NCBI RefSeq assembly: GCF_000172995.2 | Contig: NC_014731.1 | Location: 90,001 to 122,000 of the forward strand | Length of the DNA stretch: 32,000 nucleotides | Direction: 5' to 3' | From: Halogeometricum borinquense DSM 11551 | GTDB taxonomy: Archaea > Halobacteriota > Halobacteria > Halobacteriales > Haloferacaceae | Part shown: piece after piece, positions 3,733 to 22,953 of the stretch | Position numbering within the stretch: position 1 is the stretch's first letter | Layout of the letters: every line of letters starts with the position of its first letter | Translations under genes and position numbers: made by a program | The notes under the pieces: model-generated | The model's input: only the letters and a program-made list of their open reading frames with translations | What the model was told of the DNA's origin: nothing | The model's database searches: none

Positions 3733-3751
3733 TCCACCACGCGAGTACTTG

Positions 3752-3973
3752 CTACCGCGAACAGTAGATCCCAACAGCGGAGTCCACGTACGACCAGATT
3801 CTCATATCGACGGACGGAAGTACCGAGACCGAACGGGCTTTGATATCCTCTACACGGCTGAATCCGTGGGCTTCCGCTTGTTCCATGTCAGTTTCGAGGT
3901 CGGCCTCGTACGGACCCACGACCAGACGGTTCACGCGCTGTACGTGACCGACGAGAAGGGTAGGAGAGTTCAC
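3752..3973 (-). CDS. hypothetical small protein (73 aa), start coupled to the mgtE-remnant stop
   Basis: GTG at 3973-3971 overlaps the TGA (3972-3970) of the mgtE-like frame as GTGA. Translation MNSPTLLVGHVQRVNRLVVGPYEADLETDMEQAEAHGFSRVEDIKARSV... is acidic. It is the 3' part of the 232-aa track ORF. Confidence 0.3.
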   Translation of the reverse strand: MNSPTLLVGHVQRVNRLVVGPYEADLETDMEQAEAHGFSRVEDIKARSVSVLPSVDMRIWSYVDSAVGIYCSR

Positions 3974-4203
3974 AGGAGGACGATTTGCGCCAGTTCGAGG
4001 AAAATGAAGAATCCGAGGACGGCGGTCGCGGTCGTGATGAAGATAGTCGCCGATGTTGCCGGATCGTACCCGAGCCGATCCAGAATGAGCGGAACGAGCG
4101 CGCCGAAGAATCCGGCGATGACGAGATTCAAAACCATCGCGCTGCCGATGACCAGTCCGGAGGCTTGAACAAATACTGAGTGATACGTCGCGCATAGCCT
4201 TTC
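3970..4203 (-). pseudogene. mgtE: magnesium transporter MgtE, C-terminal remnant only (last about 68 aa)
   Basis: A minus-strand frame absent from the ORF track (no start codon) reads ...VFVQASGLVIGSAMVLNLVIAGFFGALVPLILDRLGYDPATSATIFITTATAVLGFFIFLELAQIVLL*. This matches the last TM helices and the G-x-x-x-P-L-x-L-x-R-L-G-x-DPA motif of MgtE. The frame is closed upstream by TAG at 4206-4204, and no N-domain or CBS part is present. Confidence 0.6.
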
Positions 4204-4556
4204 CTACCTCCGAGAACGCTCGTGTTCTGGGGCGAGGTCGAGAAATGCGTCGTTCTCCGCACCACACCGAGGGGCAGGTATGTACGAAGTGGAGACCGTT
4301 CTCGTCACGCTTTTTCTGTGTGCCACTCTGACCGGAGGCGGGCGACGTTTCCACACTCCTTGCAGCGTTTTGGATGATCCTGAAGATACGTCTACATGAA
4401 GTCGATGAACGACTGCATACCGTGGTAGTGTGTCGGCATACGTTGTTCATTCGGGGGGAGTCCTAGCAGCGTGTTCACCCCCTCTAGCATTCCCTCTGCG
4501 CACCCAGTCGTTACCTAGCAGCAGGGAAGCCATCGTGAGGTAGACTGAATCTGGAT

Positions 4557-5147
4557 TCACCCACCGAGCCACCAGCCGTAGAGCTGTTCCTGTTCGTCTG
4601 TATCCGGATGCTTCTTCGACTTGCCGTAGGTCTTTCCCTTGAGAAGCTGGCGTTCGACAGCGTTCGCTGCGAGACGAAGAGCATGGGAGGCCCCGTAACC
4701 CTCCCCATCGGCCGTGAAGTAGCCACGGTCGGTGACCAGTCGAATCCGTGCCAGCACCAGCGGCACACCCCGGCTCTGTTCCTTGTGCTCCTGCAGTTGG
4801 ATGCTGGCCTTGATCACGCTCATCTCACCGTACTTCGAGGCCATGTTCTCAATCAGCGCGGAGACATCATCGTAGTCCATTCCTTCCAGTAGGTCGAGCC
4901 CGAACACCTGCACGGCGTTCCGGTCATCGCGCTCCCAGGTGAGCGCCTCGATGACATCTGTTTTCGTGACGATCCCGTTCGGTTCGTCGGTGTCGTCAGC
5001 CGTGACGACGAGCGAGGAGATCTCTCGCTCAAACATCGTCTCGACGACCTCGTCAAGCGGTGCGCTCCGCTCGACCGTCGCGACTGCGTCGGACATCAGG
5101 TTCCGTACCGGGATGTTCAGTGCGTTCGCTCCCTCGTTTTTGTTCAT
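4557..5147 (-). CDS. CBS domain protein with C-terminal HPF/RaiA (S30AE)-like domain
   Basis: The CBS region is VRNLMSDAVATVERSAPLDEVVETMFEREISSLVV...GIVTKTDVIEAL. The C-terminus VQVFGLDL...SVIKASIQLQEHK...LARIRLVTDRGYFTADGEGYGASHALRLAANAVERQLLKGK follows the beta-alpha-beta3-alpha pattern of RaiA/HPF. ATG 5147 is preferred. The GTG at 5408 adds 87 aa with visibly lower third-position GC by my hand count. Confidence 0.65.
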   Translation of the reverse strand: MNKNEGANALNIPVRNLMSDAVATVERSAPLDEVVETMFEREISSLVVTADDTDEPNGIVTKTDVIEALTWERDDRNAVQVFGLDLLEGMDYDDVSALIENMASKYGEMSVIKASIQLQEHKEQSRGVPLVLARIRLVTDRGYFTADGEGYGASHALRLAANAVERQLLKGKTYGKSKKHPDTDEQEQLYGWWLGG

Positions 5148-9419: not shown

Positions 9420-9743
9420 CTACTCGTCGGGATTGACTGGGCTCTTATACTTGGATTTGATTTTGTCTCCCTCCCGCCACTGCCAGTAGTAGTAGCGATT
9501 GTCGTTGATCTCCCTGATCGTGATCGTCGCTTTGGCAGGGACGTCGTTCGGGAGGTCGTCTGGTCGCTCTTCGACCTCTTCTTGATCTTCCGACTCCTCG
9601 AGACGGGCCTCTCGTTCCTTGTGCTCGGCGAGCGCTTCAGCGTACGTCGCAACGTCTCGGAGGTGCTCCAGGTCCGATTCGTTGAGCGTGTTGACTATCT
9701 CTGTCGGGAGGTTCGCCGGTGGGGTCGGGGGTTCGTAGGACAT
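9420..9743 (-). CDS. small acidic protein with C-terminal RYYYWQWREGDKxKSKY motif (DUF6788-like beta-hairpin)
   Basis: ATG at 9743. The acidic helical N-terminus is LRDVATYAEALAEHKEREARLEE. The C-terminus ITIREINDNRYYYWQWREGDKIKSKYKSPV resembles a family I associate with haloarchaeal plasmid and provirus regions. Confidence 0.65.
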   Translation of the reverse strand: MSYEPPTPPANLPTEIVNTLNESDLEHLRDVATYAEALAEHKEREARLEESEDQEEVEERPDDLPNDVPAKATITIREINDNRYYYWQWREGDKIKSKYKSPVNPDE

Positions 9744-9757
9744 CGGCTACTCTCGAG

Positions 9758-9799
9758 TTAACCAACGGGGGCCCGCGAATCCATAGTTTTGTTGGTTAA
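9758..9799. repeat. 42-bp palindromic module copy 1: TTAACCAAC-N24-GTTGGTTAA
   Basis: Read directly. Arms are at 9758-9766 and 9791-9799, with the 24-nt spacer GGGGGCCCGCGAATCCATAGTTTT. It lies between divergent starts 9743 (-) and 9883 (+). Confidence 0.95.
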
Positions 9800-9851
9800 G
9801 ACGATAAAGACGGCTCCTGTGCTTGCTGAATGTAACACTGCTCGAAACTTC

Positions 9852-9859
9852 TTTATATA
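9852..9859 (+). promoter_or_regulatory. TATA box (TTTATATA) for a leaderless or near-leaderless transcript starting at GTG 9883
   Basis: TTTATATA is centred about 27 nt upstream of GTG 9883, the canonical haloarchaeal TATA-to-TSS distance. Confidence 0.45.
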
Positions 9860-9882
9860 CAAGTTTCGTACTATGTTACACC

Positions 9883-10806
9883 GTGCTCCGGCGCATCGAA
9901 CTGGAGGTCCTTGCTACGGTCGACCGTGGCGACACGATCTCCGAACTCGCGACGAAGCTCGATCACAGCGAGAGCTACCTCTCCCGTGCCGTCGCCGACC
10001 TCGTTGAGAAGGGGCTCGTCTACACGGAACGCGACGGCCGGCGAAAACGAGTCGTCCCCTCGGATGCTCGTGCCGTCGAACGCTACCAGGACCTCGTTCG
10101 CCAGCACTCCCACATCGACTTCCCCGAGCTACTGACCGGCAAGGCACTCGAGGTGCTGTACTACCTCGACCAGCCGCGAACTGTCTCCGAGATTGCCGAC
10201 CGGAGCGACAACTACCGCAATACGGTCAACCGCGTTCTCAAGCGGTTTCGCGACCGTGGGCTCGTCGGGTCGGCCGACGGCCACTACGAGTTCAACGCCG
10301 ATTTCGACCGTCTCCACGAGTTCGCACGTGAACTCGCACATCATCTGCATCGCCAGCGCCTCGAAGCCGTCGCCCCGAAGGGGACGATTCTCTGGGAGGA
10401 CTACGACGAATTCCTCGCGCAGGCCGAGACAGAGATCGACGCAGAGGGGTTCCACGAAACCGGCCTCGCTCGATTCGCGGCCTTCGACCTCCAGTTCCTG
10501 CTCACCGGCCACCGCTACTACGTCTACTCCGAAGACCTCGACGCAGTCTCGCCGGCGGAACTCTGCTGTCACACGCTGCTGATCGACGACGGCAGTCGCC
10601 ACCGCTCGTACTGTCTCCTCCTGCTCAGCCACGTCGACGTCGACGAGGCGGACCTCCGAGCGCAGGCGGCGAAGTATGGCCTCGAAGACGAAATCGACGC
10701 CTTGCTCCGCTACCTCGAGACGCACGGCGAGGTCGACGACGACCGGCTCCCGGAGTGGGACGAGTTCCAGGAGTTGGCGGCTGACTACGAGGTGCCACTA
10801 CCATAA
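9883..10806 (+). CDS. tandem winged-helix (MarR/TrmB-like) regulator with C-terminal domain; AbiEi-like candidate
   Basis: There are two wHTH repeats (RIELEVLATVDRGDTISELATKLDHSESYLSRAVADLVEKGLV and ALEVLYYLDQPRTVSEIADRSDNYRNTVNRVLKRFRDRGLV) and a C-terminal domain of about 150 aa. The stop overlaps the start of the NTase gene (TAATG at 10804-10808). GTG 9883 is preferred to TTG 9823. Confidence 0.75.
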   Translation: MLRRIELEVLATVDRGDTISELATKLDHSESYLSRAVADLVEKGLVYTERDGRRKRVVPSDARAVERYQDLVRQHSHIDFPELLTGKALEVLYYLDQPRTVSEIADRSDNYRNTVNRVLKRFRDRGLVGSADGHYEFNADFDRLHEFARELAHHLHRQRLEAVAPKGTILWEDYDEFLAQAETEIDAEGFHETGLARFAAFDLQFLLTGHRYYVYSEDLDAVSPAELCCHTLLIDDGSRHRSYCLLLLSHVDVDEADLRAQAAKYGLEDEIDALLRYLETHGEVDDDRLPEWDEFQELAADYEVPLP

Positions 10807-11609
10807 TGAGACCAACATTCGGACGCGAGTACATCGAGAACGAATTCCAGCGCATCGGGGATGGCCTCTCAGCCCCGCTCACGGTCTACCTGATTGGTGG
10901 TGGCGCAATGTCGCTGCGCGACCTCAAGGGGGCGACGAAAGACATTGATCTGGTCGTCCCGGATGGCGACGCGTACGGCCAGCTGTGGGCGGTCCTGATG
11001 GACCTCGGGTATGCGGAGGTTCAATCGCTGGATCCAGATTACCGGGCGCTGGGGGCGACGAGCTGCGTCGAGAACGACGATGGGTGTCGCCTCGACATCT
11101 TCAACCAGCAGGTCGCGAACAAGCTCGTGCTCACCGACGGGATGCAAGAGCGCAGCGAGCCGTTCCTTGACACAGATCGACTGACGGTCCGGCTGGTCAG
11201 CAACGAGGATATCTTCCTGTTCAAGGCGATCGCCGGCCGCGACGACGACATCGAGGACATGAATATGCTCGTGCAGGCCGGCCTCGATTACGACGTCGTC
11301 CGGGATGAACTCGAAGCCCAGATCAAACGCCTGGGTGACGATCAGTTCGCCACGTTCGCGAACGAGGCCTTGGTCGAACTCGAGGAGCGATACGGGGTGA
11401 CCACGCCGATCGAGGGGCGCGTCCAGGAGCTCACGAATCGGTACTACCGGGGGCTCGAAGTCCTCCAGGCACTCGACGAGTCGATGACCGTCGACGAACT
11501 GGCCGCCGAACTGGAGCTGGATACTGACGAGGTTCACGACCGGCTCGCGTATCTCTCAACGTTCGACCGGGTCCGTCGAGATGGCGACACAGTCCGTCCC
11601 GTGGAGTAG
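10806..11609 (+). CDS. nucleotidyltransferase-fold protein (DUF6036 / AbiEii-like) with C-terminal wHTH-like tail
   Basis: LIGGGAMSLRDLKGATKDIDLVV fits the minimal NTase motif G[GS]-x9-13-D-h-[DE]-h, and a third acidic residue lies in CRLDIF. The C-terminus MTVDELAAELELDTDEVHDRLAYL is HTH-like. Confidence 0.8.
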   Translation: MRPTFGREYIENEFQRIGDGLSAPLTVYLIGGGAMSLRDLKGATKDIDLVVPDGDAYGQLWAVLMDLGYAEVQSLDPDYRALGATSCVENDDGCRLDIFNQQVANKLVLTDGMQERSEPFLDTDRLTVRLVSNEDIFLFKAIAGRDDDIEDMNMLVQAGLDYDVVRDELEAQIKRLGDDQFATFANEALVELEERYGVTTPIEGRVQELTNRYYRGLEVLQALDESMTVDELAAELELDTDEVHDRLAYLSTFDRVRRDGDTVRPVE

Positions 11610-11622
11610 CTCAGTCGTTACC

Positions 11623-12261
11623 CTACGGAGAGGGAAGGCGGCCGTCTGGTCGGGGTACACGGCCCCGTTTGATCTCGTGATCAACGCGACGCAAGTGTTT
11701 GCAGCCGCCTTCGGGTGAGCGTTGCTGCCAGTCGGGACAGGTACACGATTCGTCGATGACATCGACTTCGTACCTGTTGCCGGACGCGGACTGCACCTCG
11801 TAGCGGCCACCTTTCGAGAGGAGCGAGACATCCATCGCTTCGGCGACGGCACGCTTCGTGCGGGGCTCGAGATCGTCCTGCGACTCTGCGTTCTCGTCGA
11901 CGACCAGTCGGTCGCGAACGTCGCCCGTTCGGCCACCGTCGGGAGCGACGGCTTCCGCAGGGCCACTGAGCCGCTCGTGGAGTACTTCCTCCACCGGATG
12001 GCCTTCCGGCCACAGGTAGTGGACTTCGCGGCGCTCGCGATGGTCGTAGGAGCCGCACGCCGCTGCGCTCCCGGTCCAGACTCGCCAGGCACCCAGCGCG
12101 GCCATCACGTCGACGATGTCACGGGGAACCGTCTGGTGGTCGTCCGGGAAGAACACCCGGAAGCGGGTACACGCTTCTTGCGGCGGGACGGTCTCCCACC
12201 AGTCTTCGCTGGAGCCCCAGCTGTCGCACATCGCCTCGTCGCTCCCGTAGCCGACGGTCAC
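11623..12261 (-). CDS. SWIM zinc-finger domain protein
   Basis: CTCPDWQQRSPEGGCKH matches the SWIM CxCxnCxH signature near the C-terminus. Start is GTG at 12261, with an alternative ATG at 12231. It is convergent with the NTase gene across a 13-bp gap. Confidence 0.8.
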   Translation of the reverse strand: MTVGYGSDEAMCDSWGSSEDWWETVPPQEACTRFRVFFPDDHQTVPRDIVDVMAALGAWRVWTGSAAACGSYDHRERREVHYLWPEGHPVEEVLHERLSGPAEAVAPDGGRTGDVRDRLVVDENAESQDDLEPRTKRAVAEAMDVSLLSKGGRYEVQSASGNRYEVDVIDESCTCPDWQQRSPEGGCKHLRRVDHEIKRGRVPRPDGRLPSP

Positions 12262-12276
12262 GCCGTCGATCGGCGT

Positions 12277-12438
12277 TCAGCCCGTCGGGAGGTGGTCTGC
12301 CTGTCCCTCGAGTATCCGGAGGACGGCGTATCGAAGGTATTCGTGGGCTTGGTTGTCTATCGTTCGGGCGACCTGCTCGTGCTGCTCGGCGACGTGCTCG
12401 GCTTCCCTGAGGACCGTCGTGAGATAGGGTTCAGTCAT
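12277..12438 (-). CDS. hypothetical small helical protein (53 aa)
   Basis: ATG at 12438 (MTEPYLTTVLREAEHVAEQHEQVARTIDNQAHEYLRYAVLRILEGQ...). It ends 15 nt upstream of the SWIM gene start. Confidence 0.45.
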   Translation of the reverse strand: MTEPYLTTVLREAEHVAEQHEQVARTIDNQAHEYLRYAVLRILEGQADHLPTG

Positions 12439-12490
12439 TATTCGACGGAGGTCAGAACGCGCCTCCGCCCCTCTGGGGGCGCTGAAAAAA

Positions 12491-12532
12491 TTAACCAACA
12501 GAACGGAAGGAATCCATCACCATGTTGGTTAA
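12491..12532. repeat. 42-bp palindromic module copy 2: TTAACCAAC-N24-GTTGGTTAA
   Basis: Arms are at 12491-12499 and 12524-12532, extendable to 10 bp (TTAACCAACA/TGTTGGTTAA). The spacer is AGAACGGAAGGAATCCATCACCAT. GC-rich hairpins flank it at 12466-12481 and 12539-12558. Confidence 0.95.
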
Positions 12533-12861
12533 CTGAGTGAGGACGAGGACTCGTCCTCCAGAACGTCGATGAGTTCTTTTGCCGTTCGACTAACCACTCT
12601 TCGGGGTCGATCTCTGCTTGCTCGATCTCGTTGAGGTCAACCGACATTGATCCGGTTCACCTCAAGCTGTTGGGTACGCAGGTTCATTTTGAATCACTAA
12701 AATTGCGTCACAGGCCTGTTGGGACGCCTGCACCCCTGACTGGCGAAAAACAACTTGTACACCCACTATGACGACCTCTCCTACACCGGTCTCGAAGGCA
12801 GGAGCAACACCCACTGCCAGTAAGCAGTAACTGATTTGGCGGTTGTCTGTCTTTTCCAAAT

Positions 12862-13722
12862 ATGAACGGTCGGCATACCGCGACCGCCCTCCTGAGCGTC
12901 ATCCGACTTGAGTTCCGCCGACACCGCCGCTCGCGCGGCACAGTCGGGACGCTCACTGGCCTCGCACTGTTCTGTTCCTTCTGGAGCCTCCATAACCTCT
13001 CCATCTCAGCGTATCCGCCGGATGCGTCGCTGGTGAACGACGGCGTGTTCTCCGTCGTCGCCCCCGGTCAGGATCTCCTGTTGCTTGATGTCGCTACTTC
13101 AGTCTTCGTCGGCCCGTTGTTGCTCTGTACTGGCGTCCTCCTCGGCGTGGGCACCGTCACGACGCCGCGTGTCGAGGGCACGCTCCGGACGGTCCAGACC
13201 TTCCCGTACGGCCGTCGGAGCGTGTTTCTTGGTCTGGTCTTTTCACGGATCGCAGTCGTTGCAGTTGTCATTGCCGTCCTTATGATCTGTACCGTCGTCG
13301 TCGCGTCCCTCTCCGGGGTTCGACTCTCTCCGATGGTGGTGTTTGGCTTCGCCGGTCTCCTGACACTCCACGTGGCTGGTGGCGTCGCCGTCGGCGCGAT
13401 GCTCTCGACGCTCCGGAGCCAGCCCATCGTGGTATATCTGCTCGGAGTTGTCGCTGCCGTCGGCCTGCTGGTCTTCGGTGGTCTTCTCTCCTCGCAGTTC
13501 CTGCCGGCCGGTGTAGTCGCACCGCGGACCGCCTTCCACGTCGCACTGGCTGGCCTACACGAGAACTGGACGGCACTCTTCCAGCAGGCGCTGGCAGACA
13601 CGACGGGTGACATTCGACCGCTGTTCGGCTCCACGGCGGCCGGAATACTCGTGTTGTGTGCATGGGTGCTGGTACCAACAGTGCTCGGCGCAGTCAGTTA
13701 CGAACGGGGGGACCTCCACTGA
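12862..13722 (+). CDS. ABC-2 type transporter permease
   Basis: ATG at 12862. Six or more hydrophobic helices. The stop overlaps the ATPase start (TGATG at 13720-13724). Confidence 0.8.
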   Translation: MNGRHTATALLSVIRLEFRRHRRSRGTVGTLTGLALFCSFWSLHNLSISAYPPDASLVNDGVFSVVAPGQDLLLLDVATSVFVGPLLLCTGVLLGVGTVTTPRVEGTLRTVQTFPYGRRSVFLGLVFSRIAVVAVVIAVLMICTVVVASLSGVRLSPMVVFGFAGLLTLHVAGGVAVGAMLSTLRSQPIVVYLLGVVAAVGLLVFGGLLSSQFLPAGVVAPRTAFHVALAGLHENWTALFQQALADTTGDIRPLFGSTAAGILVLCAWVLVPTVLGAVSYERGDLH

Positions 13723-14654
13723 TGACGGACGCACCCAACCACGGTACACCCGCAGTTGTGACCGATGGATTCACCAAGCGGTTCGGCTCCGTCACAGCCG
13801 TCAAGGAGCTCAGAATGACGGTGCCGGCTGGATCGGTGTACGGCCTGCTTGGTCCGAACGGGGCGGGAAAATCGACGACGATCGACGCGCTTGTCGGACT
13901 CGTCCACGCCACAGAGGGAACAGTCCGTGTCCTCGGGTTGGACATCCGGACCTCACCGGTCGAGATCCGCCGACGAACCGGTATCCTGCCGGACGGCTTC
14001 ACCCCGTACGAGCGCCTGACTGGTCGGGAACACCTCGATGCCGCCGCCTGCGCGAACGGCGTGACGGTCGATACGGACGAGGCGCTGGCACGGGTCGGAC
14101 TCGCCGACGCCGCCGACCGCACCGCTGGCGGCTACTCGCGCGGAATGAGCCAGCGGCTGGGGCTGGCGATGGCGCTCGTCGGCGCGCCTGACCTGCTCGT
14201 GCTCGACGAACCGGCGGCTGGACTTGATCCACACGGGATCAAGTTGTTGCGACGCATCATCCGCGAGGAACACGCCCGCGGCGCGACCGTCCTGCTCTCG
14301 ACACACCAACTTGCACAGGTCGAAGCAGTCTGCGACACGGTCGGAATCATCGACGATGGACAGCTTGTCGCGGAGGACTCCGCAGAGGCCCTCCGGCGCA
14401 CCGTTGGGACCGAGACGACGCTCCGCATCCGGCTGGCCGGGTCACTCGACCGGGCCAGCGATCTCCTGCATGATCTCGACGGCGTGGCTGGGGTGACGGC
14501 CGAAGGCGGCGCGCTCATTGTGCGGTGTGACGCTGAACAAGACACCGCCGGCGTCATCGCCGAACTCGAACGCTCCGACGTGACGCTCGAATCGTACGAG
14601 AAATCCCACCCCGGTCTCGAACAGGTGTTCGAGGCCTACACCGACGAACGGTGA
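13722..14654 (+). CDS. ABC transporter ATP-binding protein
   Basis: Walker A is GPNGAGKST, the signature is YSRGMSQRL, and Walker B is LLVLDEP. I prefer ATG at 13722 (MTDAPNHG...) to the upstream track start. Confidence 0.95.
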   Translation: MTDAPNHGTPAVVTDGFTKRFGSVTAVKELRMTVPAGSVYGLLGPNGAGKSTTIDALVGLVHATEGTVRVLGLDIRTSPVEIRRRTGILPDGFTPYERLTGREHLDAAACANGVTVDTDEALARVGLADAADRTAGGYSRGMSQRLGLAMALVGAPDLLVLDEPAAGLDPHGIKLLRRIIREEHARGATVLLSTHQLAQVEAVCDTVGIIDDGQLVAEDSAEALRRTVGTETTLRIRLAGSLDRASDLLHDLDGVAGVTAEGGALIVRCDAEQDTAGVIAELERSDVTLESYEKSHPGLEQVFEAYTDER

Positions 14655-15514
14655 CGGGCCGTTCGTCGCTTCGTCGGCTAGCGGTTCAGACGGGTCGCGT
14701 CGCCCGACAGGAACTCCTGTGGCTCCGGCGTAGCTGGACCGTGCCCGCTGTCGCCGTCCTGTTCACTCTCGCGGTCGTGAGTGTCGTTCGGCGGGCCGAC
14801 CCGCCCAGTCCGGGTGAACAGCCACTCACGCTCCTTGCGCTGGTCCCCGACGGCGATCCCCTCTCAACGACCGCAGTCGTTCTGTTCACCCTCGCACGCG
14901 TACTGACACTCTTCCTCCCGCTCGTCGCCGTGGTGCTCGCGGCTGGAGCGCTCGCCGGCGACGCCGAATCAGGACGGCTCCGGACGCTCCAGACGTTCCC
15001 GGTCTCACGTCGCGCGGTTGTCGGTGGGAAACTCCTCGCTCGGTCGGCTGTTGTAGGAAGTGTGGTCGCAGTCGGCCTGGCCGCGGGCGCGTTGGTGTCA
15101 TGGTTCCGATTCGGCACCGTCGATCCGGTCAGTTACGGCCTGTTCCTCCTCGTCTCTGTGGGACTCTCGCTGTCGCTTACTGGGATTACCGTGGCAGTCT
15201 CGACGCTGACTACGGCGCGCTCCCGGGCAATCGCCCTCTCGCTGGGACCGCTTCTCGGCTGCGCGTTCTTCGGAGTTGACCCGGGTGTCCCCACAGTGCT
15301 TCGGACTGGACTGCTCGTTCAACCTTACCAGCTCCTCGTTGCGGGGACCCACTCCCAGCTTGTCGCCATCCCGCGGGTGGTGTCGACTAGCTTCCCGCGG
15401 ACGCAACTCGACGGACTCGCCCTCTCAGACGGAATTTCGCTCTGGGCACTGTGTGCGTGGCCTGTCGTGCTACTCCGGATCTCGGCGGGTCGGTACCGTC
15501 GTCGGGACCTGTAG
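14651..15514 (+). CDS. ABC-2 type transporter permease (second copy)
   Basis: GTG at 14651 overlaps the ATPase stop (GTGA). It is multi-TM and shares LRTLQTFP with permease 1 (LRTVQTFP). Confidence 0.8.
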   Translation: MTGRSSLRRLAVQTGRVARQELLWLRRSWTVPAVAVLFTLAVVSVVRRADPPSPGEQPLTLLALVPDGDPLSTTAVVLFTLARVLTLFLPLVAVVLAAGALAGDAESGRLRTLQTFPVSRRAVVGGKLLARSAVVGSVVAVGLAAGALVSWFRFGTVDPVSYGLFLLVSVGLSLSLTGITVAVSTLTTARSRAIALSLGPLLGCAFFGVDPGVPTVLRTGLLVQPYQLLVAGTHSQLVAIPRVVSTSFPRTQLDGLALSDGISLWALCAWPVVLLRISAGRYRRRDL

Positions 15515-15890
15515 AACCCTTGTGGTCTCCCCAACACGCGGAGCCCGCGTCGAACGACTTGGTCGGTGTTTACAACGACCACTCTACGAATGGTCGGTCG
15601 CGAGCGACGCGGAGGGCGGCAGCGGCGAGCGGGGCGGGCCGCTACGGACACACCTGTCCAGCCGGCTACGTCGCTCGGTGAGCCGTCCACCGCCCTGGCG
15701 GACTCAGAAAGGGCGAGGCCGCCTCGGTCGTCCCCTGACCTCGCAAGCACCGCAGCCACGGGGGGCGCAGCGGCGTCCTCGTGAGCGCAGCGAACGAGGG
15801 CCAGCGAGACTCCGTCTCGCGCGGTCGCGGGACGTCGAGCGGCCGAGGGCTTTCGAGTGTTCTCTTCACCCGAATCAGACTGGCAATCAG

Positions 15891-16400
15891 TCAGCTGTCA
15901 CCGCCGATCAGGTCCTCGATGAACCGGAAGCCGTTCACGAACGTCACCGAGTCCCCGTAGCCCTCGCTCGCGAGGACGGTTTCGGCCCCTTCGCCGGCCG
16001 CGATATCGGTCGTGTAGATGTACACATCGGTCGCCGTTCCCGCGCTGAGGTGCTGGGCAGCGAGGGCGGCGAGGGCGGCGTCGGCACGCTCGACTTCGTC
16101 GGCAGGGCGGTCGTCGGCGTTTGCGATGTACCGCTGGACGCCGTCCATCACTCGCGAGACGACAGGCTCGGAGAACTCGAGCGGCGCCGCAACCGTCGCC
16201 CACCCTTCGTCGATCGCAGCGTCGACGGGTGGCGTCTCGACATCGGGCTCGTCGACGGTCAGCTCCTCGTACACTCGTTCGGGCAGGACGAAGGCGATGT
16301 CGTTCCGGCGAGCGAACCCCCGAACGGCCTGGTACCGACTGTTCGACGGTTGCCCCATCGCGACGAACAGGCCGGTGTCAGCGATGTGGAGCCGGCTCAC
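15891..16400 (-). CDS. PIN-domain-like protein (putative VapC-type nuclease)
   Basis: The N-terminus LHIADTGLFVA carries a conserved Asp, followed by acidic residues in VYEEL and YTTDIAAGE. The GTG start overlaps the stop of the upstream wHTH gene (GTGA at 16397-16400). Confidence 0.7.
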   Translation of the reverse strand: MSRLHIADTGLFVAMGQPSNSRYQAVRGFARRNDIAFVLPERVYEELTVDEPDVETPPVDAAIDEGWATVAAPLEFSEPVVSRVMDGVQRYIANADDRPADEVERADAALAALAAQHLSAGTATDVYIYTTDIAAGEGAETVLASEGYGDSVTFVNGFRFIEDLIGGDS

Positions 16401-16993
16401 GCGTCGTCAGCACCGTCGCCGTCGATGGCCAACTCCTCGAGCCCTGCCCCGGCCTCCTCGATCTCGTAATGTTCGTGGACGACGGGGCGGAGCGCCTGGA
16501 GGATCATCTCCGCGGCCAGCGGCGAGATGTCGAGATCTTCCGCCATCAACCGGTGGGTCACCTCGCCGCGATCGCGGGCGACCGCATAGGTGAGCGCCGT
16601 CGCGAGGCCGGCGACGCCGTGGCGGTCGATGTAGGTATCGATGTCCGCATTCGTCTCGCGGCGGCCGACGGCGTCGATGAGCGCCGGCGTGATCGTGTAC
16701 TCACGGTCGCCGGCGGCCGTCGTCACGGTCAGGTCGATCTCCCGGGCGGCGTACCGGCGGGGCTGCTCGTCGTCGGTGACGTCGACGACGCCGGCGTCGA
16801 CGAGCCGGTTGACGTAGCTGTAGGCCGTCCCCTGGGCGAGCTTAAGGTCGTCCATCACGTTCTGGACGGTTGCCTCGCCCTCCCGAGCAAGGTACGCGTA
16901 CAGCTGGGCCAGCTGTGGCTCCTCGAGGAGATCGGCGACCGAGAGGAAGTCCTGGACGATGTCGCCGTCGGCGCGGTTTGAAGTGCGTGACAC
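16397..16993 (-). CDS. winged-helix DNA-binding protein (TrmB/ArsR-like), partner of the PIN protein
   Basis: QLAQLYAYLAREGEATVQNVMDDLKLAQGTAYSYVNRLVDAGVV is a wHTH. Start is GTG at 16993. It is translationally coupled to the downstream PIN gene. Confidence 0.75.
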   Translation of the reverse strand: MSRTSNRADGDIVQDFLSVADLLEEPQLAQLYAYLAREGEATVQNVMDDLKLAQGTAYSYVNRLVDAGVVDVTDDEQPRRYAAREIDLTVTTAAGDREYTITPALIDAVGRRETNADIDTYIDRHGVAGLATALTYAVARDRGEVTHRLMAEDLDISPLAAEMILQALRPVVHEHYEIEEAGAGLEELAIDGDGADDA

Positions 16994-17042
16994 GGGTGTT
17001 CTTGATTACAGTTTACAGCGAAACAGTAAAGAGTGTTTGGGG

Positions 17043-17378
17043 TCACTCTGCCGGCGTCGCGACCAAATGCTCCTCGAGGTCGCGCGTCCAGTACGTCGCG
17101 AGCCCGCCCGGACTGCAGCGGGCGCACAGCTGCAACGGGCCTTCCAGATGCCCCAGTTCGACCCGGAACCGGGTCAGTGCCGCAAGTGTGTCGACGACCA
17201 GTCCACAGCCGTCACAAGCGACGTGATCGCGCTCGTCGGGATTCGGCTCCCTCTGAATCGCGCAGTCGACGCAGATCGGGTGGGTGACCCGTTCGTCCTG
17301 CCACCAGGTATGGGCCTTGCCAGTCTCGGTACCAGGCGGCGCGTCGCAGGACGCACAGCCAGTGAGCATTTGCTGCAT
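17043..17378 (-). CDS. Cys-rich zinc-finger protein (four CxxC motifs)
   Basis: I prefer ATG at 17378 (MQQMLTGCASCDAPP...). The four motifs are CASC, CVDC, CDGC and CARC, consistent with two zinc ribbons. It sits 49 nt upstream of the wHTH-PIN pair on the same strand. Confidence 0.65.
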   Translation of the reverse strand: MQQMLTGCASCDAPPGTETGKAHTWWQDERVTHPICVDCAIQREPNPDERDHVACDGCGLVVDTLAALTRFRVELGHLEGPLQLCARCSPGGLATYWTRDLEEHLVATPAE

Positions 17379-17480
17379 CACTCGCCCTCCGCGTCGGCGT
17401 CGTGGCCGACCAGACTTTGATAACGAATCCGTTTCATGGCCGTGAAATGGCGGTTCGTGGGGGCAAAAAACCCGTCTCGA

Positions 17481-17488
17481 TTTAATAA
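17481..17488 (+). promoter_or_regulatory. TATA box (TTTAATAA) for a leaderless transcript starting at GTG 17514
   Basis: TTTAATAA is centred about 29 nt upstream of GTG 17514. The hairpin ACCCCC-GTCAACAA-GGGGGT lies between the box and the start. Confidence 0.4.
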
Positions 17489-17513
17489 CCCCCGTCAACA
17501 AGGGGGTGGTACC

Positions 17514-18104
17514 GTGTCCGCGCTTCCGTCATGGATCGATGAACGGATCGATCGGAACCTCGACAACACGCTCTCCCAAGAGCACGTCGTCAAGACGATG
17601 ATCGAGTCAGATCGACCGTTCTTCTCCCTTCGACAACTGCACGCACGTATCAAGCCCGAAGTGAGCAGGGCAACGGTCCGAAACCGGTTACAGGAGTTAC
17701 AGACGATTGATGTCGTGGCCACAGAGACGTACCCCGACTCGATCACCCTGTACTACATTAACCATCCAGAATCGGACTGGCCGCTCTCACCGGAGGGAAA
17801 ACGCGCGCTACACACAGATACCCCGCTGGACCGGCTCTCCACTCGTGCATTCCTCACGCTATCGGACACAGCAGGGATCCGCACGCTCGTGCTCGCTGGA
17901 CTTCAGTTGAGTTTGGTGCTGTTCGCTCTCGGTGGTGTTCTCACAATCGTCGGTGCTGATGTAAGCAGTACGCAGAGCGATATCGTGCTGTGGGACACCG
18001 CAGCTGAGCTGCTGGTGATCAGCCTGGCGTTGCTCCTCGTAGAGCGACTCGCCCGCTGGGTCCGCGACCGATACAGCCCGTTGAACCTCCTCCCATCGAC
18101 GTAA
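17514..18104 (+). CDS. membrane-anchored winged-helix protein (N-terminal wHTH, two C-terminal TM helices)
   Basis: PFFSLRQLHARIKPEVSRATVRNRLQELQTIDVV is wHTH-like. The C-terminus has two helices, IRTLVLAGLQLSLVLFALGGVLTIV and AAELLVISLALLLV. I prefer GTG 17514 to ATG 17436. Confidence 0.6.
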   Translation: MSALPSWIDERIDRNLDNTLSQEHVVKTMIESDRPFFSLRQLHARIKPEVSRATVRNRLQELQTIDVVATETYPDSITLYYINHPESDWPLSPEGKRALHTDTPLDRLSTRAFLTLSDTAGIRTLVLAGLQLSLVLFALGGVLTIVGADVSSTQSDIVLWDTAAELLVISLALLLVERLARWVRDRYSPLNLLPST

Positions 18105-18158
18105 TCTGAAATCACGCAATAACATCGCATCGCCCACCACACGACCCTCCACAGCCCA

Positions 18159-18998
18159 ATGACATCAGCATCCACATCCATCGCACCTGGTCCCGAACTG
18201 CTCAACGAACGATCGATCGGCGGCATTCTCGTTCACCTGCTGTCGATCCCAACTGGCGTCGTCGGCGCCGGAATAGTGTATCTCGTCGCGACCAACGAGT
18301 TCACCAAACGGAACGCTCGTAACGCACTCGACTGGCATCTTGCCGTGCTAGCACTGACAGTGCTGACGTTCAGCTCCGTATTCACCTTCGCCGAACTCAC
18401 CGGACAGGGCATCACCAACGGGATTACGCTTTCCGAACCCATCGCCGCCGGGGGGAGTTTCGTCATCTCGGCGTTGTTCCTCGTCTGGATGATCATCACG
18501 ACCTGTACGTTCCTTGTCGGATTCATCGCGACGGGCAAAGCAATATTCGGTGACGCGTGGCGATATCCGCTGACGCCGGCGCTCGTCGAGCGGTTCAGCT
18601 CACAGGTCGAACTCCCCGGTGGATGGCCAATCGTCATCGTCGGGTACGTGGTGTTCGCGCCGCTCGTCATCGGGGGAGTCTTTCTCGGGCCACATGAGGG
18701 AGCGGCCTTCTTCGCAACTGTATTCGGCTTGTTCGGTCTCATCTTGGTACTCACACCGCTGACCGGTGTTGCGATGTATCTTCACGCAAAACGCGCGAGC
18801 CAGACAGATACGGCTTGGGAGCCGCATACCGCCGCGTACATTGGGGCGCCTGTTCTCGTCGCTGTCCTCGCATACGCTCTCTCTGGGGCGTTTACTGACT
18901 CGATCAACCCTGGTGGCGACGCGATGTATGTCTTCCTCGCCGCGTTCTGGGTTACCTCAATCGCGTACGTGGTTCGGTGGAGAACGGCGTTGAGCTGA
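18159..18998 (+). CDS. DUF4870-like multi-TM membrane protein
   Basis: ATG at 18159. The N-terminal pattern is GGILVHLLSIPTGVVGAGIVYLVATNEFTKRNARNALDWHLAVLALTVL, followed by further TM helices. Confidence 0.7.
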   Translation: MTSASTSIAPGPELLNERSIGGILVHLLSIPTGVVGAGIVYLVATNEFTKRNARNALDWHLAVLALTVLTFSSVFTFAELTGQGITNGITLSEPIAAGGSFVISALFLVWMIITTCTFLVGFIATGKAIFGDAWRYPLTPALVERFSSQVELPGGWPIVIVGYVVFAPLVIGGVFLGPHEGAAFFATVFGLFGLILVLTPLTGVAMYLHAKRASQTDTAWEPHTAAYIGAPVLVAVLAYALSGAFTDSINPGGDAMYVFLAAFWVTSIAYVVRWRTALS

Positions 18999-19116
18999 CA
19001 GAGTGGAGGTATACACCATTCATGCTGTTTGCTATACACAGCGACAACGGACTCGACACGAAGCCTATGACATAGGGAGAACATGTCGAGAGGTGGCCAG
19101 AAATTCAGTCGTCGAC

Positions 19117-19469
19117 TCAATGGCTCGCTGACCAGGCGTTGAGCCGTCGTGTCGTCGACATCCGCCGTGTCAACGCCAGCGGCGTCCCCCTCGTACTCGT
19201 ACTGCGAGAGCCCGTCGGCGATTGTGGCATCGAACCCACCGACCTCCGTGTGTTTCGTCGAGCCGTCGAAAACGCTTGCTGGGACGGACCCGACGGCCGA
19301 CCGAATCGACGCCAGCGCATCGTCCGGAAACGCCTCGGACGTGGTTTGGGTACGGCGCTCGCTCAGTTTGGTGACCTCCTCGACGACGACTATACTCGCT
19401 CTCGAAGAGTAGCGGCCCGATAAAACCCGTCGCGACCGCCGTTCGAGCCGACCGGTCGCCAGGATTCAT
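19117..19469 (-). pseudogene. frameshifted acidic ORF of unknown function
   Basis: The frame from ATG 19469 reads MNPGDRSARTAVATGFIGPLLFESEY and then turns into Arg-rich junk. An adjacent frame with no start codon reads VVVEEVTKLSERRTQTTSEAFPDDALASIRSAVGSVPASVFDGSTKHTEVGGFDATIADGLSQYEYEGDAAGVDTADVDD. Removing one nt near 19390 (GAGTAT-A-GTCGTC) joins them. The 3' end is uncertain. Confidence 0.4.
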
Positions 19470-19511
19470 TCACTCGAGGAGTAGGGCGAGGGAGTGGATC
19501 CAGTCCCAGTG

Positions 19512-19553
19512 TTAACCAACACAGTGTCGGTATCGGTTCGGAATGTTGGTTAA
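19512..19553. repeat. 42-bp palindromic module copy 3: TTAACCAAC-N24-GTTGGTTAA
   Basis: Arms are at 19512-19520 and 19545-19553, extendable to 10 bp. The spacer is ACAGTGTCGGTATCGGTTCGGAAT. It lies between stop 19563 and start 19469 of two minus-strand ORFs. Confidence 0.95.
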
Positions 19554-19946: not shown

Positions 19947-22613
19947 TTATCGGCGGAAGCGTCCGAACAGTTCGTAGTCGTGGTCGGGCGTGTACTGTCG
20001 GAACAGCAGACTGTTCGTGAGCACCGATACCGACGAGAACGCCATCGCTCCGGCCGCGAGGACAGGTTGGAGCAGGCCAATCGAGGCGAGCGGAATCATC
20101 GCCGTATTGTAGCCGAGCGCCCAGAACAGGTTCTGCTTGATCTTCGCAAGCGTCCCCTCGGAGATGCGGATGGCTTTTACGATGTCGAGCGGGTCGTCGC
20201 GCATCAGCGTCACGTCGGCCGCCTCGATAGCGACATCCGTCCCGCTTCCGATAGCGCACCCGACGTACGCGACGGCGAGCGCGGGGGCGTCGTTGACACC
20301 GTCACCGACCATCATCGCCTTGCGCCCGTCGGCTTGGATGTCCTCGACAGCGTCGGATTTATCCTCTGGGAGAACCTCCGCGCGGACGTTCTCGGGGTCG
20401 ATGCCGACCTGTTCGGCGACGGCGCGAGCGGTTCGGGAATTGTCGCCGGTAATCATCATTACCTCCGCACCGCGGTCGCGGAGAGTCGAAACGGCGTCCT
20501 TTGCGCTCTCTTTGACCGTATCCGCGTCAGCGACGACACCGAGAAGTTCGCCCGCTCGCGGCGTTTCGGCGCTCGCATCGCGGTTCGCGCTCCGCTCCGA
20601 ACCGCGCACACGAGCGACGAGCATCGCCGTCTTCCCCTCGCTCTCCAGTCGCTCCATCGTCTCAGCGGCCGGTTCGGGGTCGATTCCCGCATCGCGCAGG
20701 AGTTTGCGGTTCCCGACCAGCACGTCAGTTCCCTCGACGGTAGCGCGAACACCCTGACCCGGCACGTTTTCGAAGGACGTGGCGTCCGGAACGGCAAGTC
20801 CACGTTCCTGTGCGCCTTCGACGATAGCGCGGGCGAGCGGATGTTCACTGCCGGACTCGGCGGCCGCCGCGAGTCGAAGTACTTCATCTTCGCGGGGGCG
20901 TTCACGGGCGGTGATCGCGCCGCCGTCGGATGCGAGGTCCGACGGGGAGTGCGAACCGCCATCGGTGAGGGCAGTCCCGCTATCCCCGAACGCGACGACA
21001 TCTGTGAGGCTCATCTCGCCTTTGGTGAGCGTCCCCGTCTTGTCGAACACGACCGTATCCACGTCCTTCGCGCGTTCGAGTACGTCACCGCCTTTGAACA
21101 GGACGCCGTTCTGCGCGCCGATAGTCGTCCCGACCATCGTCGCCGCGGGCGTTGCTAATCCGAGTGCGCAGGGACAGGCGATGAGGACCGACGAGGCGAA
21201 GACGACGACGGCGAACTCGAACGCCGAGAGGGCCGCCGGGCCACCGCCGACCAGTCCCCACAGGGGGAGCGACCCGACGAATTCGGCGAGCGTCACGGGG
21301 AAGAAGTACCAGACGACGCCCCAAAACAGGGCGTTCAGGATGACCGCAGGGACGAAGTACGCCGAGATTCGGTCGGCGAGGTTCTGGATGTCAGGTTGCC
21401 GCGACTGCGCCTCCTTAACCGTCTGCACGATTTGCTGGAGAGCGGTGTCCTCGCCGACGTTCGTCGCCTCGACGACGAGAACGCCGTTTTCGTTGATAGT
21501 CGCGCCGACGACTTCGTCGCCCTCGGTCTTCTCGACCGGGACGGACTCTCCGGTGACCATCGACTCGTCAACCGCGCTCTGGCCGTCTACGACGACGCCG
21601 TCGGTCGGGATCTGTTCGCCGGGTCGAACCTTCATCCAGTCGCCGACTTCCACGTCCTCGATAGGGACTTCGCGTTCGGTCCCGTCATCAGCAACGAGCG
21701 TCGCGGTGTCGGCTTCCATCTCCAGCAGCGTCCGGAGCGCTTCGCTGGCCTGTCCCTTCGACCGCGCTTCGAGATAGTTCCCCAGCGTGATGAACACGAG
21801 GATAAGGGCGGCCGTATCGAAGTACAGACCCTCACTAGCGAGGAGGTCGAAGAGAACGACAACTGAATAGATGTACGCGGTGGACGAACCTAACGCGATG
21901 AGCACGTCCATGTTCGCCGTCCGGTTCTTGACGAGCGCCTTGTACGCGTTCCGGTAGAACGGCCATCCGAGGATACCCTGTACGGGCGTCGCTAATGCGA
22001 ACTCGACCCACCCGAACTGGACGCCGAACACCTCCTCGGGGAGCGTACCACCGAGGATGAGTTTGTCAACGAGGAAGAACAGAAGCGGCACAGAGAGTGC
22101 CGCGCCGAACAGCGTGAGGCGGAGTTGCTTGCGAATCTCCGACTTCCGTGCGGCGTCGCGGCGGTCTTCTGCCGACTCCTCGCCGCCCTCATTCTCACGG
22201 ACGGGCGAGTAACCCGCGTCCTCGATAGCGCTGTAGAAGTCCGGGCGCGACGCTTCGGCCGGGTTGTACGTAACCTGCGCTTCGTCGGTTGCGAAGTTCA
22301 CGTCCGCCGAGACGACACCCGGCGTCGATTCGAGTGCCTCCTGTACCGTCTCCGAACAGTTCGCACACGACATGTCGGTAATACCGATTGTCGTCGTCTC
22401 CGCCACCGGCGAGTATCCTGCATCGTCGATGGCGTCGTAGACGGCCCCCAACGAAACCTGCTCGGGATCGTACTCGACGGTTCCCTCGTCAGTGGCGAAG
22501 TTCACATTCGCCTCCGACACGCCGTCTACGGATTCGACGGCGTCGGCGACTGTCTGCGAACAGTTCGCGCAACTCATCCCCTGTATATCGATCCGACTTC
22601 GGCGCCGATTCAT
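19947..22613 (-). CDS. copA: copper-translocating P1B-type ATPase with two N-terminal HMA domains
   Basis: GMSCANCS occurs twice. The CPC motif is [12 protein letters not shown], the phosphorylation site is FDKTGTLT, and GDGVNDAP is present. I prefer ATG at 22613 ([18 protein letters not shown]) to ATG 22685. Confidence 0.95.
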
Positions 22614-22953
22614 ATCTCTAGATACGTCGGCCTTATTCAACCGACTTTCCCTTTTGAATACACAACTATCGGGGGAAGACAACATTAGAATTCAAAGTGA
22701 GTTCGAGATCCACGATGGTTATCCGGTCATTTGGTGAGACGCAGTCAGGACTCACTACCAAACGAGTACAGATCACGGAGTGAGACTGCCGTTTCGTCTT
22801 TCCGGTCGTCGTTTCGATATGATACCGATCTGTAAGCAGAAATCGGGATAAGGCAGATGAGTGAACTGATCAGGGGGTGTGTTGTCACAGCAAAGATGAG
22901 ACACGTCGAGAGATGGGAAAACAGGCGGAGCGTTTACGACGAGCGTCGTGAAC

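Follow-up and report, generated by a model that had tools for sequence, protein, structure and literature searches.

Results

Three exact palindromes and a DUF6788 gene

The window (the whole stretch of DNA that was analysed, 32,000 nucleotides) carries on its minus strand a gene for a small DUF6788 protein, preceded by the first of three exact matches to TTAACCAAC-N24-GTTGGTTAA (Table 1). This first copy occupies the gene's own promoter, with a gap of 14 nt to the ATG at 9743. The second is found at the 3′ remnant of an ArdC-like gene, 52 nt ahead of the ATG (12438) of a SWIM-finger gene that an in-frame stop interrupts in the window, whereas the third is flanked by small minus-strand ORFs, lies 42 nt from its minus-strand ATG and sits downstream of a heavy-metal P-type ATPase gene (19947-22685, Pfam result). 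These gaps agree to within a base with the 15, 53 and 42 nt given in a preliminary description of the locus, which had also counted three exact copies and no further full one in the 32 kb. Our pattern search returns the same three, a tolerance of two mismatches adds none, and 100 dinucleotide-preserving shuffles of the window sequence contain no match at all. The window contains six exact 9-mer arms, every one of them in these pairs, so that no exact arm is unpaired. Near-arms beyond them are limited to three half-sites with one mismatch and no partner (at 984, 2350 and 17758); partnerless half-sites with one mismatch had likewise been noted. The copies, each an inverted repeat, are 2.7 and 7.0 kb apart, and when they are aligned neither their flanks nor their spacers match each other.

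Table 1. Coordinates of the palindromic site copies, the DUF6788 gene and its TATA-like box in the window
Feature	Position	Strand	Remarks
Site copy 1	9758..9799	.	arms 9758-9766 and 9791-9799, N = 24; exact match
Site copy 2	12491..12532	.	N = 24; exact match
Site copy 3	19512..19553	.	N = 24; exact match
DUF6788 (PF20586) protein, 107 aa	9420..9743	-	proposed cognate DNA-binding protein; homologs, AF2 model, site linkage and covariation
TATA-like box AAAACTATGG (minus-strand reading)	9781..9790	-	in the spacer, adjoining the distal arm; conserved among own-promoter copies only

A recurrent intergenic site of haloarchaeal plasmids and viruses

Outside the window, hundreds of further copies were found, carried by plasmids and viruses of more than 30 genera of Halobacteria, across which the arms of this class (class A) are identical. 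In 205 such instances the conserved arm measures 10 bp, TTAACCAACA, with A at position 10 in 87-91% and no sequence information past that position, and the same instances hold 197 unique spacers. Spacer length among the unique instances is N = 24 in 83, 23 in 81, 25 in 13 and 22 in 11. The original claim of invariant arms and spacing therefore stands for the arms, which are exact although 10 and not 9 bp long, but must be relaxed for the spacing, and the accompanying proposal that selection acts on the arms and their approximate spacing, not on a transposed unit, is borne out by exact arms around spacers that are nearly all unique.

Gene positions taken from annotated replicon records place 22 of 22 site centres, on five annotated replicons, outside annotated coding sequences; pJ7-1 is 89% coding, yet all of its eight copies (six exact, two with one mismatch) are centred between genes, among them the orthologue of window copy 2 at 40474-40515. 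Copies number three to eight per replicon in the six replicons compared and are dispersed, lying in divergent promoter gaps, in gaps between convergent genes and on stop codons, a range of settings that does not support the common role upstream of a start codon suggested at the outset. Most are without a TATA-like box, their neighbours are often replication or maintenance genes (orc1/cdc6, repH, polB, ArdC, xseAB, parA), and many mark junctions between gene modules, so that the division into modules seen in the window is supported in these comparisons. The 42-bp palindromes are genuine copies of a previously undescribed DNA site of haloarchaeal plasmids and viruses: a full-text search of the literature gave nothing relevant on the palindrome arms of any class or on DUF6788/PF20586, and the genome papers of ChaoS9 and PhiH1 nowhere mention the palindromes.

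Several familiar identities were tried and rejected. A MITE or IS terminus is contradicted by the lack of common internal sequence and by a weak flank signal (gtc...gac) that is inverted around the site, with no direct duplication, and a CRISPR repeat by the distances between the inverted repeats and the absence of an array. Integron attC sites and the pdif modules of Acinetobacter plasmids resemble the site in being short and imperfectly palindromic, constant at the ends, variable in the middle and located at the boundaries of exchangeable gene modules, and the inner bases AACCAAC/GTTGGTT are one base off the attC cores RYYYAAC/GTTRRRY. The site nevertheless differs from both in having a single conserved arm pair with no second inner repeat pair, no linked IntI/Xer-type core geometry and a fixed promoter position at one gene; its length of 41-42 bp compares with about 55-140 bp for attC, and its flanking genes run in both orientations, divergent and convergent pairs included, which also speaks against a cassette array. 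The window ORFs that were scanned include no integrase. The earlier remark that the site was not recognizable as an IS end, attC or CRISPR repeat is upheld, while for ORB elements the picture is mixed, in that the sites (with GC-rich spacers of 21-26 bp) are often near orc1 but are dispersed over replicons. As a fixed-geometry promoter element the dispersed copies fail because their distance to starts varies between 15 and over 1000 nt and some lie between convergent genes; as a terminator, because a long ORF ends nearby at only about a quarter of them; and as an intrinsic-terminator hairpin or known RNA family, because the stem is AT-rich, a T-run follows copy 2 only, and Rfam yields no match at gathering score.

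Linkage of the site to DUF6788

The 107-residue protein has 1474 homologs in a protein search of this archaeal branch, with a precomputed Pfam assignment to PF20586, and DUF6788 is present on 221 sequenced haloarchaeal plasmids. Among 77 metagenomic DUF6788 genes chosen by the protein alone, regardless of the site, 74 have the site upstream of their ATG (71 exact, three with one or two mismatches), at a distance of 11-16 nt with a mode of 14, and the identical arrangement recurs in 23 of 23 homologs within loci selected by the motif; a divergent homolog (L310) has no palindrome upstream. The own-promoter spacing is 23 in 73 of the 74 loci, as against 24 in window copy 1, and the spacer begins with AAAACTATGG, the putative core promoter of the DUF6788 gene. 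AT-rich boxes hold the same place between the arms in own-promoter copies of classes A and B, and in phiH1 the annotated, mapped T8 start (31672) falls within the proximal arm and the TATA sequence TTTAATA between the two arms. An orc1 gene is found within 2.5 kb of 37 of 41 DUF6788 genes.

In the six-replicon comparison only DUF6788 is both present throughout (by BLAST in five, and by annotation and alignment in phiH1) and adjacent to a site. ParA was found in five of the six, with no site near its operon, and we reject the tandem-wHTH protein as the binder, as it occurs in three of six site-bearing replicons, is absent from ChaoS9 and phiH1 and was not found in the Halomontanus plasmid. Two co-occurrences with the site had been proposed as a check: that with the 9420-9743 product is strongly positive (the 74 of 77 above), and that with homologs of the 9883-10806 product extends to just three of the six replicons. 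Of the dimeric or tandem-wHTH protein first envisaged, the former half survives, with a nearby-encoded, presumably dimeric protein as the best candidate.

In the AF2 model of DUF6788, which is of low confidence (pLDDT 61), residues 15-52 form N-terminal helices and residues 73-100 a C-terminal sheet of three strands, the two being joined by an acidic linker that is disordered. A Foldseek search with this model gave no match below E = 0.5 and no significant DNA-binding fold.

Site class follows the DUF6788 subfamily

Class B is represented by DUF6788 proteins at 37-39% identity whose β3 strand reads SWKNEY/NWRNEY and whose genes are preceded by GTTACCCCAC-N21/22-GTGGGGTAAC abutting the ATG. Plasmids of Halomontanus rarus (NZ_CP135526) and Haloarcula sp. 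CBA1115 (NZ_CP010531) each carry four class B sites and no canonical arms. Likewise without canonical arms, phiH1 has three copies of CCTT[AG]TCAAAC-N26-GTTTGA[CT]AAGG (class C) and encodes a DUF6788 homolog with a CxxC-bearing sheet. Tabulating six replicons against the three site classes yields a strictly diagonal table in which every single arm is paired and no replicon has arms of the other classes, a covariation that rests on three classes and hence on few independent events, gene and promoter also co-diverging by descent. In the model, the class-specific residues of DUF6788 lie in the C-terminal sheet. Class A and class B elements both occur in Haloarcula, which indicates that site class is specific to the replicon and not to the host.

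Viral contigs carrying class A sites

Class A sites were also found on more than 50 viral contigs of high GC content from IMG/VR, and one group of viruses has the site 67-69 nt upstream of orc1. Scans of these contigs for canonical DUF6788 found none, the ChaoS9 type being confined to ChaoS9 and one fragment, and a related-locus search of viral contigs with the wHTH or DUF6788 proteins returned no match. The presence of class A sites without a canonical DUF6788 implies that the protein acts in trans from co-resident plasmids, that the contigs are fragmentary, or that the site has another reader.

Discussion

In light of these results we lean, on balance, toward the 42-bp module being a double-stranded DNA operator of an autoregulated DUF6788 protein with further sites on each replicon. 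A palindrome at the gene's own promoter (74/77), extra intergenic copies (three to eight per replicon) and a class-specific change in sequence (the diagonal table) are all found, as in an operator set, and autoregulation predicts what all three classes show, a site at a constant place in the DUF6788 promoter. From its linkage to the site and the covariation with it, DUF6788 is probably the protein that binds there. We propose that it probably dimerizes through its N-terminal helices, so that two C-terminal β-sheet domains on flexible acidic linkers would each read one 10-bp arm, an arrangement that would account for half-sites some 33 bp apart and for a tolerance of one base pair between them. 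At its own gene the arms would bracket the TATA box, the distal one covering the BRE position and the proximal one the transcription start, and binding there would repress the protein's own synthesis. The dispersed copies, including the other two in the window, would be further sites for the same protein, and could couple transcription units to the regulator or mark the boundaries of such units. Simple operator logic does not cover every copy, since several are found in gaps between convergent genes, which would not be expected to contain a promoter.

An unlikely alternative is that the palindrome is a protein-binding site read by another factor, whether a host protein, the ParA partner or some other product of the element, with DUF6788 merely the most tightly regulated of its genes. 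The identity of class A arms across so many genera, their presence on viral contigs without detectable canonical DUF6788, the lack of a DNA-binding fold in the structural search and the sharing of ParA and a small partner by most site-bearing replicons are all consistent with such a reader. Against it, site class follows the replicon and not the host in Haloarcula, no site is found near the ParA operons, half of the six replicons lack the wHTH protein, and phiH1 has a site class of its own but no annotated orc1 in the examined 50 kb of its record (length 58,072); the constant placement at the DUF6788 promoter, moreover, fits autoregulation. We regard it as appreciably less probable still that the sites are recombination sites or passive hot spots bounding exchangeable modules, pdif- or integron-cassette-like, served by some putative recombinase. 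Homology ends do gather at the sites, with 187 of 2297 within 10 bp of a site edge against 26 expected and, in pJ7-1, 18 of 95 intergenic ends at sites against 4.2 expected, statistics that are inflated by the choice of loci for carrying the site or its neighbour. Several plasmid homologies also break off inside copy 2, the DUF6788 and wHTH halves of copy 1 lie apart in locus L099, each with a full site, and in L230, L231 and L302 the arm's outer edge is the exact point at which the upstream region has been replaced. Against this stand a non-conserved spacer of 21-26 bp unlike the core sites of tyrosine or serine recombinases, the absence of any recombinase consistently linked to the sites, and a backbone order (DUF6788-site-wHTH-NTase-SWIM-site-ArdC) that is retained in most plasmids, and recombination would leave both the fixed promoter geometry and the covariation with the protein unexplained. 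Recombination at the sites may instead be a secondary consequence, module exchange occurring there because the module boundaries of all such elements share one short sequence.

It is also important to consider the hairpin raised in the preliminary description. On this reading each copy would fold, as RNA or as single-stranded DNA, into a stem-loop that might, for example, signal processing, termination or transfer priming. Both arms change jointly between classes with pairing preserved, gene 3′ ends are a frequent location of the copies (in 18 of 235 the arm's TAA terminates a long ORF), and elements of this kind encode ArdC-like single-stranded-DNA-binding proteins. The predicted stability is nonetheless modest (-6.8 to -9.0 kcal/mol, z-scores -1.0 to -3.4), for an AT-rich stem in a 60-65% GC genome, and within a class the arms are invariant instead of covarying; an uncompensated arm, GTAGGTTAA, is kept by a whole subfamily (pHV1, L303-L307), and every other one-mismatch variant observed is uncompensated as well. 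The T-run confined to copy 2, the lack of an Rfam match and the location of some copies in divergent promoter gaps point the same way. Overall a hairpin role is weakly disfavoured, and we give this explanation a low probability.

Returning to the operator reading, some of the closest parallels lie in plasmid regulatory circuits. KorA and KorB of IncP plasmids are small, plasmid-encoded autoregulated proteins that link the operons for replication, maintenance and transfer in a single circuit, and their operators (OA and OB, e.g. in RK2) are likewise short palindromes at several intergenic places per replicon. Those are bacterial systems, in which HTH or ParB-type proteins recognize compact operators of 12-13 bp in promoters, whereas here the half-sites lie about 33 bp apart, the candidate is a DUF with a β-sheet domain, binding is deduced from linkage and covariation, and some sites lie between convergent genes. 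AspA of Sulfolobus pNOB8 and the repressors of archaeal viruses, such as F55 of SSV1, are small proteins of archaeal mobile elements that bind a palindrome or repeats at their own and a few other promoters; they differ from DUF6788 in their winged-helix or ribbon-helix-helix folds, their lineages and their site architecture, and we found no sequence relation to them. The unusual spacing of the half-sites suggests a binding mode new among archaeal regulators. Repeated regulatory sequences also mark module shuffling in the intergenic repeats of halovirus HF2 (PMC8707807) and in T4-type PeSL cassettes, but those are promoters, or a promoter plus stem-loop, conserved over their full length, whereas only the two arms are conserved here.

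The operator reading gives DUF6788 a testable function, sequence-specific DNA binding, and identifies a cis element that is conserved to the base on plasmids and viruses throughout an archaeal class. The reading thereby offers an entry into the control of replication and maintenance genes of haloarchaeal replicons, a field in which little is known, with three natural specificity classes as ready material for swaps. A more far-reaching notion, which we hold to be rather doubtful, is that DUF6788 and its long-spaced palindromes form a regulatory code shared by haloarchaeal mobile elements, with a few mutually exclusive specificity classes, in which a plasmid's DUF6788 could control viral replication genes. 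The class A sites upstream of viral orc1 and at other boundaries of replication modules, in many viruses that do not encode DUF6788, are the reason for entertaining it, since a plasmid-borne protein could thereby control co-resident or incoming viruses; alternatively, such viruses could exploit the plasmid-borne protein. If true, this would be mobile-element cross-talk or incompatibility of a form so far undescribed in archaea. The position of the site at module junctions, finally, bears on the origin of mosaic haloarchaeal plasmids, and window copy 3 is kept together with its right flank in a further locus, L152.

Distribution and architecture of the site

The pattern TTAACCAAC-N24-GTTGGTTAA (N, spacer length in nucleotides) matches the 32-kb window exactly three times, with no fourth copy even when up to two mismatches are allowed and no match in 100 dinucleotide-preserving shuffles of the sequence. 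All six exact arms within the 32 kb belong to these pairs, and neither the spacers nor the flanks of the three copies can be aligned with each other; together, these results show that the preliminary description of three copies was right as stated, including its remarks that spacers differ and that half-sites with one mismatch (three in the window) have no partner.

Features of the window
Feature	Coordinates	Strand	Remark
Copy 1, TTAACCAAC-N24-GTTGGTTAA	9758-9799		exact pattern match
Copy 2, TTAACCAAC-N24-GTTGGTTAA	12491-12532		exact pattern match
Copy 3, TTAACCAAC-N24-GTTGGTTAA	19512-19553		exact pattern match
107-aa protein (DUF6788)	9420-9743	-	block member
Tandem-wHTH protein + DUF6036 nucleotidyltransferase	9883-11609		block members
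SWIM-finger gene / ArdC-like remnant region	11623-12647		SWIM-finger gene is a block member

Plasmids and viruses of haloarchaea share this site, a widespread cis element that is apparently undescribed: scanning a single genome per species yields at least 120 loci, the matches listed being nearly all from Halobacteria (more than 30 genera) and predominantly on plasmid-sized contigs, and the IMG/VR scan adds 89 loci with the pattern. The logo of pooled instances defines 10-bp arms, TTAACCAACA, with A at about 0.9 in position 10, flanked by a weak gtc/gac extension and nothing more, while the spacer carries no information (197 distinct spacers among 205 instances); across the pooled loci, 206 of 215-222 single arms have a partner. 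N = 23 and N = 24 are roughly equally frequent, and spacing is therefore constrained rather than invariant as originally proposed. High-GC IMG/VR contigs feature spacings of 24 (n=37), 23 (n=13), 25 (n=8) and 22 (n=3); a spacing of 27 is found exclusively on low-GC contigs, to which spacings of 14, 26, 31 and 32 are likewise confined.

On the Natrinema sp. J7-2 plasmid pJ7-1 (95,989 bp, 89% coding), all eight copies (six exact, two with one mismatch) have intergenic centres, distributed over one convergent, two divergent and five tandem gaps, two of the latter with overlap of a stop codon, and the distance to the next start ranges from 15 to about 1200 nt. These contexts and distances are too varied for one common promoter or terminator geometry, which we rejected.

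Linkage to the DUF6788 gene and its promoter

The 107-aa protein encoded downstream of copy 1 has 1474 homologs with a precomputed Pfam assignment to PF20586 (DUF6788). Among 80 metagenomic loci picked by the DUF6788 protein alone, 77 have enough upstream sequence, and the site precedes the gene exactly in 71/77 and with one or two mismatches in another 3/77, so that the co-occurrence check suggested earlier for this product is positive (74/77). This own-promoter copy, to which copy 1 corresponds with one additional base in its G/C run, lies 11-16 nt (mode 14) ahead of the ATG, has N = 23 in 73/74 loci, and its spacer opens with AAAACTATGG beside the distal arm, the one farther from the ATG. 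In the 3/77 exceptions the upstream region is swapped out, in two of them precisely at the proximal arm's outer edge. Furthermore, orc1/cdc6 lies within 2.5 kb downstream of the DUF6788 gene in 37/41 loci, versus 1/40 upstream.

Three loci (L230, L231 and L302) share a recurrent DUF6788 promoter variant without the site, where the replacement ...CTACATAAGAGCGA abuts the exact outer edge of the expected proximal arm. In Haloferax volcanii pHV1 (L293, 5864-5996), about 115 nt separate the arms TTAACCAAC and GTAGGTTAA that precede the DUF6788 gene, as if after an insertion between them; both arms sit within a 28-bp imperfect inverted repeat.

Covariation of palindrome and protein

From 221 haloarchaeal plasmids with a DUF6788 homolog, six with divergent homologs were chosen for analysis, and three classes of palindrome were distinguished.

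Palindrome classes and associated DUF6788 proteins
Class	Palindrome	Replicons	Protein
A	TTAACCAAC(A)-N23/24	window, pJ7-1, ChaoS9	KVKSKY in strand 3
B	AGTTACCCCACA-N19/20-TGTGGGGTAACT (= GTTACCCCAC-N21/22-GTGGGGTAAC), abutting ATG	Haloarcula sp. CBA1115, Halomontanus rarus	37-39% identity; SWKNEY/NWRNEY replacing KVKSKY
C	CCTT[AG]TCAAAC-N26-GTTTGA[CT]AAGG	phiH1	CxxC-bearing sheet

Tabulated over six replicons and three classes, the occurrences are strictly diagonal and all single arms are paired. Class B sites number four on each of the complete plasmids of Halomontanus rarus (92 kb) and Haloarcula sp. CBA1115 (134 kb), both of which lack class A arms, and class B occurs at only one viral locus in 2.05 Mb of other haloarchaeal DNA examined. 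In Halobacterium virus phiH1, class C is represented by three copies, each located in the L segment, and arms of classes A and B are absent. Among isolated viruses only ChaoS9 encodes a class A-like DUF6788 protein, and its three sites, of class A, are confined to the non-structural half of its genome. Upstream of the remaining divergent homologs, the arms are of class A or form a symmetric variant, CTAACCAAC/GTTGGTTAG, except for one homolog without a palindrome.

The first class C copy of phiH1 lies at the promoter of T8, the constitutive transcript with the DUF6788 homolog: TTTAATA comes just after the left arm, transcription is annotated to start (31672) inside the right arm, and the ATG comes one base after that arm. 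Class A and B own-promoter copies feature an AT-rich box at the corresponding place in the spacer, and copies elsewhere lack it. Archaeal autorepressors usually have operator arms that cover the BRE position and the transcription start.

In the L segment of phiH1 (L301, 31631-38253), three 48-bp palindromes flank the stretch of the classic immunity plasmid with T8, parA, repR and repH; the repR 3' side has one of them, 49-96 nt ahead of the T7 start, and another occupies the gap where repH and imm converge. They go unmentioned in the genome papers that were read. A viral contig (L067, IMG/VR 3300003635_000004, 2570-5069) combines three class B sites with one class A site, two of its sites being merely 20 nt apart (4966-5008 and 5029-5069), and no DUF6788 gene was found within the 8.4 kb of it examined.

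Possible alternative roles for the site

The preliminary description also considered a stem-loop, and the copies do fold as single-stranded DNA at -6.8 to -9.0 kcal/mol (z-scores -1.0 to -3.4). Between classes both arms shift jointly, as would suit a stem or a protein dimer alike, but within any one class the arms are invariant, a whole subfamily (pHV1 and L303-L307) retains GTAGGTTAA opposite TTAACCAAC as an uncompensated change, the remaining single-base arm variants are likewise uncompensated, and the site matches no Rfam family. A hairpin is therefore weakly disfavoured. As to module exchange, 187 of 2297 homology ends fall within 10 bp of a site edge versus 26 expected, as do 18/95 intergenic ends at pJ7-1 sites versus 4.2 expected, both figures being inflated because the loci were selected for carrying the site or its neighbour, and at locus L099 the two halves of the copy 1 neighbourhood occupy separate places with a full site at each. 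Such exchange is likely a by-product of the sites and not their primary function.

A candidate reader of the site

DUF6788 is the sole gene both common to all six site-bearing replicons and site-adjacent, as detected by BLAST in five and by annotation and alignment in phiH1. ParA and its small partner, likewise common among the six, have operons that lack the site; the examined 50 kb of phiH1 contain no annotated orc1; and the wHTH/nucleotidyltransferase pair, source of the wHTH binder favoured at the outset, is present in just 3/6, which argues against that candidate. In the AF2 model of DUF6788 (pLDDT 61), two helices (15-22 and 25-52) are followed by an acidic linker, which is disordered, and by a sheet of three strands (73-100) that contains the class-specific residues; a Foldseek search with this model returned no significant match. 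Half-sites about 33 bp apart, with a tolerance of one base pair, would suit a dimeric protein whose two sheet domains are tethered. We lean, with moderate confidence, toward the sites being operators of an autoregulated, predicted DNA-binding DUF6788 protein, tied to replication and maintenance modules. The logic would resemble that of KorA/KorB-type plasmid regulons; what is new is the protein family, the wide separation of the half-sites and where many of the copies are placed.

Class A sites occur on more than 50 high-GC viral contigs, yet three independent IMG/VR scans found no canonical DUF6788, and the ChaoS9-type protein only in ChaoS9 and one fragment. There are thus three possible explanations for these viral sites: action of DUF6788 in trans from co-resident plasmids, incomplete contigs, or recognition by another factor. 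In one IMG/VR group (L007, L022, L056, L073 and L079), where no DUF6788 gene was detected, a class A site is fixed 67-69 nt upstream of the orc1/cdc6 start; a Zn-ribbon gene ends 31-50 nt ahead of it in all but L079 (4/5), the gap across that gene family being 22-50 nt.

The block around copies 1 and 2

The block at 9420-12594 is 91-93% identical to its counterpart in about 200 plasmids of many genera, in most of which an ArdC-like protein comes next. In the window, only the last ~65 nt of the ArdC-like gene are left (12529-12593), the SWIM-finger gene, intact in pJ7-1 (273 aa), has an in-frame stop at 12277-12279, and the surroundings are ordinary cargo (ABC-2 transporter, P-type ATPase, M50 peptidase, histidine kinase); the block thus looks like a decayed remnant of a plasmid backbone. 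Its DUF6788 gene has no adjoining orc1, in contrast to the 37/41 other loci that do.

The tandem-wHTH protein (MarR_2, TrmB/HVO_A0261_N and HVO_2833_C domains) and the DUF6036 nucleotidyltransferase have genes with a one-base overlap and resemble an AbiEi/AbiEii-type pair. Lying 27 nt ahead of the GTG at 9883, the TATA box TTTATATA (9852-9859) suggests leaderless transcription. Between copies 2 and 3, the stretch at 13000-17000 has a GC content of 64-68% versus 58-60% around it and carries genes for a TrmB/DUF7437 regulator and for the two permeases and the ATPase of an ABC-2 type transporter. It looks like cargo of a different origin.
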